Source: a virus
Lineage: Duplodnaviria; Heunggongvirae; Uroviricota; Caudoviricetes
Virus record (IMG/VR): IMGVR_UViG_2529293069_000015
Coordinates: 1 to 18,695 of that record
Strand: one strand, 5' to 3'
Length of the DNA: 18,695 nt
Shown here: in pieces, positions 3,001-6,000 of the stretch
Layout: the number at the start of each line of letters is the position of its first letter
Position numbering within the stretch: position 1 is the stretch's first letter
Program-made: the position numbers

Positions 3001-6000
3001 CCCCAGCAGACGGTTGAATTCCGTATGCTGACCGTTCATAACCAGCATGGACTGGTACACCTTATTCTGCTCTGCTGACGAATTAACGCCACACGACGGT
3101 CTTCCAGCCCGGCAAGCACATCCTGAATGGACTGCGCTTTTTCCTGCATCTGTGCCAGACGGGACTGCTCAACGGCAAGCTGCTCTGTTGCCTGAGAAAG
3201 CCCTTCCGTTACGGTCTTCACCGATGTCAGATGGTTTATCATGAATCCGTCACCGGTCGTCCAGCCCGGGTTCGCCAGAACATACTGATATCCTGCGATT
3301 TTTTCCTGCAGGGATTTCACCCGGCTGGCCTGTTCATCAATCAGCCGGTTCTGCTCTGTCAGCGCCGCCCGTGTTCGTCCTTCATTATCTGAGGCTTCAG
3401 GCAAAGACATTGACGGCGTTTTATGCGCGATTTCATCTATCGTCAGTGCATACTGGCGCGCAGACTCCCTGGCCTGCTCCTGATTCTGGTACAGCGTGTA
3501 CCATGCTGCAGCCCCCAGCATCACCAGTCCGGGTACGCCACCAACCAGCCCCAGCGCACCGCTCATCAGACGTGAGCCCACCGCCGTTGTACTGTTCAGC
3601 GCATTCTGGGCGGCGCTTCTGGCAGCAATATTTCTGTTCAGGCGTTCCTGTGTGGCCGCCAGACGGGCCTCTGCAGCAATCTGCATCTCCGTCCCGCGGG
3701 CTGCCGCCACGGCCTGCTGAGCACGGTACACGGCTGCCCTTGCCCGCGCCGTGGCAATCTGCGTTCCCCTGAACTGTGCTTCCGCCAGTGCAACTTCATT
3801 ACGTGCAGCCGTCACAAGTCCTGCCGTGGCAGACACCGCTCCGGAGGCCATATTGCCAAAGTAACGTGCAACCCCGACAGCAACCAGCACACCTGCTGCC
3901 GCGGCCACATTATCAATATTGCCGGCAACACCGTTCAGCGCACCGGAGAGCGTTTTCGTCGCTCCGCTGGCCTCATTCGCACCGCCCACCCAGGCCATAA
4001 AGGCGTTTTCCACCTTCGTGATACTACTGGAAACCGTTTCCGGCATGGCCGCATATTCATCACGTAATATCCCCAGCTGGCTGATTAACGCGGGGACCAC
4101 TTTATCCGCTGTCAGTTTTCCGTCATCCGCCATTGCCTTCAGATCTTTACGGGCCACGCCCATACCCGCAGCCAGTGCACGTACGATCCGGTCACCACTT
4201 TCATTGACCGAATTAAACTCCTCACCACGCAATACACCCTGCGCCAGCGCCTGACTGAACTGGGTGATCACCGAGCCCGCCTCTGCCGTACTGGCACCGG
4301 AGATTTTCAGCCCTGTCGAAATGGCCTCCGTCACCTTCAGCACATCATCAGCACTGTAACCATATTCACGCATTGAGGCGGCTGAGCGGGCAAACAGGGC
4401 CGCATTATCCGAAAATGCGGTGCCTGTCCGCTGGCTGATATCCATCAGCACTTTCTGTGATGACGAAAATTCATCCGATGACTGCGACGCCTGTTTCAGA
4501 CGGGCATTCACGGAGCTCCATTCATCCGCCAGCGAAATCAGGTGTCCGGTGGCAAAGACACCGGCAAACGCACCGGTCATTCCGACAGCCGAAGCGCGGA
4601 TTTCCGTCAACTGGCTGTTCAGTTCTGCCAGGGCGCGTCGCTGCTCCCGGGCTGCCGCAGCGGCCTGACGCCCGCCATTTTGCAGGGTCCGGTAATATTC
4701 ACTGCCCATGCGGGAAGCACGCTGGATCTCCGACTGGAATGACTGTGAATTTGCCGAAATTTTGATAATCAGTTCACGTAACGTCGCCATTAACCTTTCT
4801 CCGGGCGCAAAAAAACCGCCTCAGCGATTCTCATCATTTATGACTGTGCTGCAAGGCTCAGCGCGTCTTCCAGCGCCGCAAACGGATCCACCTCCGGCTT
4901 GTCCTCATCCTCTCCCCAGCAGAGCATGGCGTCCTTCAGTGCAACATTCATCCCCTGCGCCCCGAAAACCGCTTTCACGATCTGCGCATTACGGATATCC
5001 CCGCGCTCATCACCCAGCGGGGATATCCTGTCGAACTCCATCCACATCATCGCCTCGCTCGCACTCAGGCTGTGCCGCAGTTCGGATAAGGTGCGCCCCA
5101 GACGGAGCGCAAGTCGCATCAGAAAGCGAATTTCCGGGCGGGCTACTTTTTTCTGGCCGACTCTGCATCAGCGATCAGTTCCAGTGCCTGACGCAGCAAC
5201 CGGGCATGTACCGGACCATAGACGGCCAGCACCTGCTCACGGTCGTCCGGAGTGAACACCCGTTGCAGGTCAGTATCACACAGGACATCGCAGAACAGCG
5301 TCACATCCGCTTCCAGGTTACGGCGGGTTTTCGCCACCACCGACAGGGTATCGTCATCCTCTCCATCACCATTGAGCACTTCCTGCCACAGATACCAGGC
5401 CTCTGCCGAAGGCTCCCGCAGCACCACGCTGACATTTCCCCATTCCGGCACCTTCACCGTTTTATGACGGAACCCCGACAGTCTGGCCAGCGCCAGTGTT
5501 TTCAGATCTTTTGCCATAAGCCTTATCCGCCCGCACCATTAACCGTTACGTACACGCATCAGAGGTAATGCTCTGCGGCTGTTCTGCAGAATCCGTTACC
5601 ACGCAGGTATAAGCCCCCTTATCACCTGACTGCGCATTGGCTTTACTGAAAGTGTCAGTAGTCTGTCCCTCACCGGCTGACCATCCTTCTTCCAGGCGTA
5701 TTTATAAGGCGGCGTTCCCCCGTTGACACTGACTGACATTGTCAGCAGCGCACCGTATTCACGGTAAGTGTCTTCTCCGATTTTTCAAAACGCCAGCGGT
5801 ACCACATAGACACGGTTACCTTCAGCGAGTGAAACGTTGCAGCCACCACGCCGTTGGTCCGGATGACCAGGTGTGCTGACGCACTTCCGCCAGGAACTTA
5901 AAGCCCTTACCGGACGGAAACTGCACCTTAAACGCATACACCGTGTCATTTCATAGGCATCACGCAGGGCTTCTGGCCTGATTAGATAAAATTCCCGACA

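Follow-up and report, generated by a model that had tools for sequence, protein, structure and literature searches.

The question raised by this locus is how the reading frame that follows a phage tail gene, G, is translated when G itself ends in a slippery sequence directly followed by a stop codon. The locus lies on the minus strand of the window, by which we mean the whole 18,695-nucleotide stretch of DNA that was analyzed (positions 1 to 18,695 of IMG/VR virus record IMGVR_UViG_2529293069_000015, Caudoviricetes); downstream of G, in the -1 frame, is the open reading frame (ORF) here called T. We conclude, with a probability of roughly 0.93, that the junction is the programmed -1 ribosomal frameshift site of an HK97-type G/GT chaperone pair in a lambdoid prophage of enterohaemorrhagic Escherichia coli. 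The T extension is probably translated only as the C-terminal part of a fusion protein of 226 amino acids (aa).

The minus strand at the 3' end of G reads ...TCG GCC AGA AAA AAG TAG. A preliminary description of this DNA had placed an A AAA AAG heptamer directly ahead of the G stop, and both the sequence and its translation bear this out. A ribosome that slips by -1 here reads GUA (5146..5144) next, and the junction peptide would therefore be ...SARKK-VARPEIRF..., exactly as foreseen and as obtained by translating the fusion. Two details of that description needed correction. The -1 frame was said to be open from exactly the heptamer, but it opens at 5167, 15 nt upstream of the heptamer and 22 nt ahead of the G stop; because a TGA closes it further upstream, the overlap in which a shift is productive amounts to only seven codons. 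The -1 ORF does end just before the tape-measure gene, with 47 nt between its TAA and the tape-measure ATG at 4790, but it contains 102 sense codons (5146..4841) and not 93, a figure that corresponds to the length counted from an internal ATG at 5119. The features are listed in Table 1.

Table 1. Features of the G/T junction and the genes on either side of it, in window coordinates.
Feature	Position	Strand	Description	Basis
Gene G, tail assembly chaperone	5517..5143	minus	124 aa plus TAG stop; product of standard decoding	ORF list, translation
Slippery heptamer A AAA AAG	5152..5146	minus	X XXY YYZ in the register of G	sequence
Zero-frame UAG stop abutting the 3' side of the heptamer	5145..5143	minus	possible "shifty stop"	sequence
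-1 frame open ahead of the slip	5167..5147	minus	bounded by TGA 5170..5168	-1 translation
T extension, -1 frame	5146..4838	minus	102 codons (VARPEIRFLM...LAAQS) plus TAA 4840..4838	translation
Predicted GT fusion	join(5517..5146, 5146..4838)	minus	226 aa = 124 + 102	
Internal ATG (Met of FLM motif)	5119..5117	minus	start of the separate 93-aa "tail assembly protein T" in automated annotation	
Major tail tube gene with C-terminal Ig domain	5523..6214 (start approximate)	minus		alignments to complete genomes
Tape-measure gene	1555..4790	minus	two ORFs, 4790..3036 and 3060..1555	ORF list, Pfam

Domain content and gene order identify the pair. G matches the Pfam family Phage_TAC_1 (PF06222) over its full length (E=1.7e-61; 206.1 bits against a gathering cut-off of 25), and the -1 ORF matches Phage_tail_T (PF06223; E=2.5e-19; 69.9 bits against a cut-off of 25.9). 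The orthologue of G is named "phage tail assembly chaperone" by the Prokaryotic Genome Annotation Pipeline (PGAP). The order tail tube (~5523..6214), G, T, tape measure (from 4790) is that of lambda and HK97, and further upstream of the tail tube gene lie genes for a gp17-type tail completion protein and an HK97-gp10-like protein. An intact orthologue of the tail tube protein matches Pfam Phage_tail_2, Phage_TTP_11, and Ig_2, while the domains TMP_3, Phage_HK97_TLTM, and Tape_meas_lam_C are spread over the two pieces of the tape-measure gene. These domains and this synteny, together with the conserved slip core and the published cluster described below, support the proposed tail chaperone G/GT arrangement. 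It is the arrangement of long-tailed phages, as had been suggested, but the window G belongs to the HK97-type chaperone family, unlike lambda G (PF06894). The lambda gpG family (Phage_TAC_2, PF06894) was considered for the window G and rejected, as PF06222 was its sole Pfam match and BLASTP against lambda G gave no significant alignment.

Conservation was assessed across 13 diverged relatives whose G proteins range from 68% to ~35% identity: HK446, phi467, LAU1, mEp390, ECP1, ENT39118, three Klebsiella phages, Vibrio phage Pm34, and the Burkholderia phages KS9, phi644-2, and phi1026b. In all 13 the T-domain ORF is in the -1 frame and overlaps G at its 3' end, and 12 of them have a zero-frame lysine codon AAG at the same aligned column, where KS9 has AAA. 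The sequence around this column varies. A AAA AAG followed by a stop is found in the window, phi467, and Pm34; the same heptamer lies ten codons ahead of the stop in phi644-2 and phi1026b, and A AAA AAA lies eleven codons ahead of it in KS9. G GGA AAG is present in mEp390 and ECP1, G GAA AAG in HK446, LAU1, and ENT39118, and only GCA AAG TAA in the Klebsiella phages. The records of HK446 and KS9 annotate the fusion as a joined coding sequence (CDS). Closer to the window, AAAAAAG+TAG and the 102-codon T are kept in 80 of 80 IMG/VR relatives, and in the phi467-like clade A AAA AA[G/A] TAG is kept in 77 of 80 IMG/VR contigs while flanking codons vary, the other three having a run of seven A's (A7). 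A slip site fixed in position among relatives is reportedly the signature of G/GT pairs given by Xu, Hendrix, and Duda in 2004. The slip core seen here, fixed in position amid changing codons, conforms to that signature. The alignment of homologs had been named as a way to test the preliminary description, which it upholds: the position of the slip core is conserved, and T has no convincing start of its own.

The run of A's differs in length among contigs of the phi467-like clade (L016-L095): it is A7 in L079, L084, and L085, A9 in L094 and L095, and A8 in the rest. The three A7 copies shift G into a frame without the TAG stop and without the T reading, and they are explained by errors in sequencing or else by mutation of an unstable homopolymer.

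The element is already known from another copy. Prophage Sp9 of E. coli O157:H7 Sakai carries ECs1801 and ECs1802, which have ~99% DNA identity to the window over G and T, the same order of late genes, and, in ECs1801, the identical AGA AAA AAG TAG site. The two copies differ by point substitutions only. These alter one residue of G (R27G) and two of T (V/I, M/Q), and of six substitutions in T four are silent in its own frame. Sharma et al. (2014, PMC4066793, Tables S4 and S8) name ECs1801 as representative of the 53-gene cluster A_AAA_AAG_25, which is entered as "tail assembly chaperone; [true]" and linked there to GeneTack cluster #10 (Antonov et al. 2013, PMC3711429). Since the same element in Sakai is catalogued as a true frameshift, the window adds a further copy of a known element. 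In E. coli, two genes from the HK97-like cluster of tail chaperones were measured to frameshift at 6% and 7% (Antonov et al. 2013, PMC3711429), and by analogy this copy would be expected to shift at a similar level of 6-7%.

These comparisons suggest a mechanism. Most ribosomes would read G through to UAG and release the 124-aa chaperone, while a few percent would slip back by one base on A AAA AAG, read GUA next, and continue through 102 codons to give the 226-aa G-T fusion. The single E. coli tRNA-Lys (anticodon mnm5s2UUU) would pair poorly with AAG and re-pair on AAA, and owing to this lysyl-tRNA(UUU) few heptamers in E. coli are as prone to shifting as A AAA AAG (PMC4066793; PMC5009743). 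The slip could occur as a tandem event in the P and A sites or as a P-site event while UAG waits for release factor 1 (RF1). If lambda is a guide, the tape-measure protein would then be coated by many G and few GT molecules, the T domain would recruit the tail-tube subunit, and neither chaperone would be part of the virion. An assembly function for G/GT in this phage is suggested by the homology of the T domain and by synteny.

A long -1 extension beyond a heptamer is not rare by chance. The window has nine copies of AAAAAAG where 3.0 are expected, and random windows of 18.7 kb contain on average 1.26 cases of any X XXY YYZ that is in frame close to the end of an ORF and has a -1 extension of at least 60 codons. 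The case for frameshifting therefore rests on homology, domains, and conservation. Two other such patterns, each a heptamer with a long -1 ORF, occur on the plus strand opposite phage genes, at 16215-16221 (TTTTTTA) and 9148-9154 (TTTCCCC); they match the ~1.3 per window due to chance and are noise.

Several observations weigh against a frameshift at this site. Even when the heptamers are limited to the three most shift-prone in E. coli, the pattern has a ~5% chance of arising in a window. The sequence upstream of the heptamer, GCTGATGCAGAGTCGGCCAG, contains no GGAG, GAGG, or AGGA that could act as a Shine-Dalgarno (SD)-like stimulator; the 106 nt downstream of it fold no better than shuffled sequences (z=-0.22); and the consensus fold of 10 relatives has only a 6-bp hairpin ~35 nt downstream (-3.8 kcal/mol) with negligible covariation. 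The 6% and 7% values belong to two genes of the cluster and are not tied to this exact sequence. The exact 226-aa fusion, in both its window and Sakai versions, is absent from a collection of 15 billion proteins, and PGAP and most depositors annotate instead a separate 93-aa "phage tail assembly protein T". Finally, the tape-measure gene of this copy is broken (see below), so the frameshift may no longer serve the production of virions.

The structural points bear on how the site works. A stimulatory RNA element had been sought downstream of 5146, and neither the single-sequence nor the consensus folds gave one near the site; the hairpin ~35 nt downstream coincides with the conserved LALRxGR codons. 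The published entry for the cluster agrees, with no SD, a hairpin no better than the local average, and a free-energy difference (ddG) of 0.020+/-0.023 (Sharma et al., Table S8, PMC4066793). The one distinctive feature of the context is the UAG directly 3' of the heptamer, and a heptamer plus stop is also found in the phi467 and Pm34 clades.

It is possible, though doubtful, that this abutting zero-frame stop (A AAA AAG UAG) is a functional stimulator in the clade and that the G:GT ratio depends on release-factor activity. Slow recognition of UAG by RF1 would give the P-site Lys-tRNA on AAG time to slip. The Klebsiella phages (L008, L009, L011) lack an X XXY YYZ heptamer where G meets T and retain the A AAG tetramer in GCA AAG TAA; their -1 frame opens merely 7-13 nt ahead of the stop. 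This layout suggests a single-tRNA P-site slip at the stop codon in these phages, and their keeping of GCA AAG UAA and a -1 T frame in the absence of a heptamer hints at the stop as the stimulator. If this proposal is correct, the site would be a "shifty-stop" variant of G/GT expression and not a lambda-like tandem slip.

Could T instead be an ordinary separate gene that initiates at ATG 5119, perhaps when ribosomes that have terminated at the G stop 24 nt upstream start again, with the heptamer incidental? The prevailing annotation assumes such a gene, the ATG is close enough to the G stop for termination-reinitiation, and it is conserved in 12 of the 13 diverged relatives. This conservation does not require a start function, because the Met belongs to a conserved F-L-M protein motif, and in KS9 the ATG is missing (L-E-L-T at that position). 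Pairing of the region ahead of ATG 5119 with the anti-SD sequence is -3.5 kcal/mol against a background median of -3.3, and most homologous T ATGs pair more weakly still (-2.8 to +0.7 kcal/mol, with phi467 the exception at -5.7); G, the tape-measure gene, and other neighbors pair at -5.8 to -12.8 kcal/mol, the value for the G ATG, which has an SD-like AAGG upstream, being -5.8. Moreover, the eight codons between the slip site and ATG 5119 are conserved as protein across clades (V-A-x-P-x-x-x-F-L), and the -1 frame upstream of 5119 has no ATG, GTG, or TTG in frame. As the zero frame has already stopped, these codons can be translated only by frameshifting from G, and frameshifting has been measured in this gene cluster (PMC3711429). 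By computation, then, T lacks initiation signals of its own, as seen in the anti-SD pairing, in KS9, and in the conserved upstream codons. ATG 5119 is probably not a real start, and we consider a separately initiated T improbable.

Two other explanations would accept a change of frame but place its origin elsewhere. The apparent frame change between G and T could be an artefact of an indel-prone sequence, and the window does contain 55 indels relative to the closest complete genome, mostly single-base deletions, of which 25 fall in the gene directly upstream of G. None falls within 4838..5517, the nearest upstream being at 5549; an identical site with identical frames is present in the finished genomes of O103:H2 12009, O157:H7 Sakai, and 493/89 and in 80 IMG/VR contigs; and distant relatives have the same arrangement of frames. 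The G/T frame change is therefore genuine, given that neither G nor T contains an indel and that finished genomes share the site, and we reject an assembly artefact, to which we give next to no chance. Alternatively, RNA polymerase could slip on the run of A's and add one A in some transcripts. Such slippage is possible on homopolymeric A runs (PMC3711429), and the run in the phi467 clade is longer (A8-A9) and varies between A7, A8, and A9 among contigs. However, the run in the window comprises six A's, below the 8-9 or more usually needed (PMC3711429), and relatives with G GGA AAG, G GAA AAG, or GCA AAG have no long homopolymer while keeping the tRNA-Lys slip core, which points to a ribosomal mechanism. 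We thus regard transcriptional slippage as very unlikely, and slippage of the ribosome on A AAA AAG as the best explanation of the junction.

Besides the Sakai element, three known systems share features with this site. In HK97 gp13/gp14, seen via HK446 (NC_019714), G and T are of the same Pfam families, with 63% identity in G, and they occupy the same place between the tail tube and tape-measure genes, with the -1 fusion annotated as a joined CDS. The slip sequence of HK446 is G GAA AAG, after which the zero frame runs for five more codons, whereas in the window it stops immediately; unlike the window, HK446 has an extra small gene (gp15) and terminators ahead of the tape-measure gene.

Lambda shares the gene order (V-G-T-H), a T of the same Pfam family (PF06223), and a -1 shift shortly before G stops, at a heptamer that finishes with A AAG and in lambda is G GGA AAG. 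It differs in its G, which belongs to PF06894 (PF06222 in the window) and has no pairwise similarity to the window protein, in the 19-nt overlap of the G and T ORFs, in a stop that is not adjacent to the slip site as it is in the window, and in a T of 144 codons versus 102. The work on lambda G/GT (Levin, Hendrix & Casjens 1993; Xu, Hendrix & Duda 2004, 2013, 2014) is cited here to the extent that it is recounted in PMC5009743: G and GT coat the tape-measure protein at ~30:1, the T domain recruits the tube protein, and both proteins are needed for tail assembly and absent from virions (PMC5009743). We presume a similar role for the window pair, with G and GT coating the tape measure and T recruiting the tube subunit.

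E. coli dnaX (gamma/tau) has the identical heptamer A AAA AAG and the same logic of tRNA-Lys re-pairing (PMC3711429, PMC4066793). Shifting there is ~50%, with an SD-like stimulator upstream and a stem-loop close downstream (PMC3711429); the window has neither an SD-like sequence ~10 nt upstream of the heptamer nor a stable stem-loop 5-9 nt downstream of it, and the published efficiency for its cluster is 6-7%. In dnaX the shifted product is the shorter one, while in the window it is the longer one. The preliminary description had called the heptamer dnaX-type and distinct from the G GGA AAG of lambda, which holds for the heptamer itself and not for the stimulators of dnaX.

Through G/GT frameshifting, phages control the proportions of the two chaperones that assemble long tails of the right length, a textbook case of recoding. 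The present instance is nothing new in kind, as the Sakai element is catalogued and the efficiency of the cluster has been measured. Its practical value lies in annotation. RefSeq/PGAP and most depositors start T at the internal Met, and the exact G and the 93-aa T each occur on at least 1000 contigs under separate names; with T called separately and the fusion missing from the protein collection, thousands of E. coli genomes lack a record of the real product. For ECs_1802 of Sakai an even later start is annotated (210 nt). Several E. coli records misname a 94-aa protein of the T cluster (P0018) as "preprotein translocase subunit SecA".

The window as a whole shares ~98-99% identity with lambdoid prophages of Shiga-toxin-producing E. 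coli. Its matches comprise 92 phage records, mostly of phages converting for the Shiga toxin (Stx) types Stx1a, Stx2c, and Stx2a, and 1246 of 5426 complete E. coli genomes, often in several copies per genome. The 55 indels mentioned above were counted against O157:H7 493/89; they are clustered, nearly all are single-base deletions, and they extend beyond homopolymers. The affected stretches are 5549-6194, 11447-11684, 13796-14861, and 8712-8775, with the 25 next to G falling in the tail tube gene and others in the major capsid gene, the terminase region, and the portal gene. With its ~25 single-base deletions, the tail tube gene cannot be read in the window. These clusters look like stretches of low-quality sequence and not like natural decay.

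The tape-measure gene is a different matter. It is split into pieces of 584 and 501 aa by a 7-bp deletion (GCAGGCG) near 3075 relative to O103:H2 12009, and O157:H7 493/89 carries the same allele, flagged "frameshifted" by PGAP. As this complete genome shares it, the split gene is a real pseudogene allele. The slip signal is intact in a prophage that is probably unable to assemble tails unaided.

In two independent complete genomes (L001 1353-3937; L015 9062-11483), PGAP flags the portal gene of this type of prophage as "frameshifted" and calls a small overlapping ORF of 222 nt just upstream of it. The Sakai record (L096 15169-17748) has a single portal CDS of 2580 nt. The start of the portal gene may thus be a place where the frame is repeatedly disturbed.

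The gap between the T stop and the tape-measure gene contains, at 4809-4827 on the minus strand, a short hairpin, CGCTGAGGCGG, followed by T7 (TTTTTTT), which a simple terminator scan missed because its stem has fewer than five pairs. Better-formed terminator-like hairpins occupy the same place in relatives, namely CCGCTTCGGCGG-T7 in phi467 and GCCCGCGGCTGCGGGC-T5 in mEp390.

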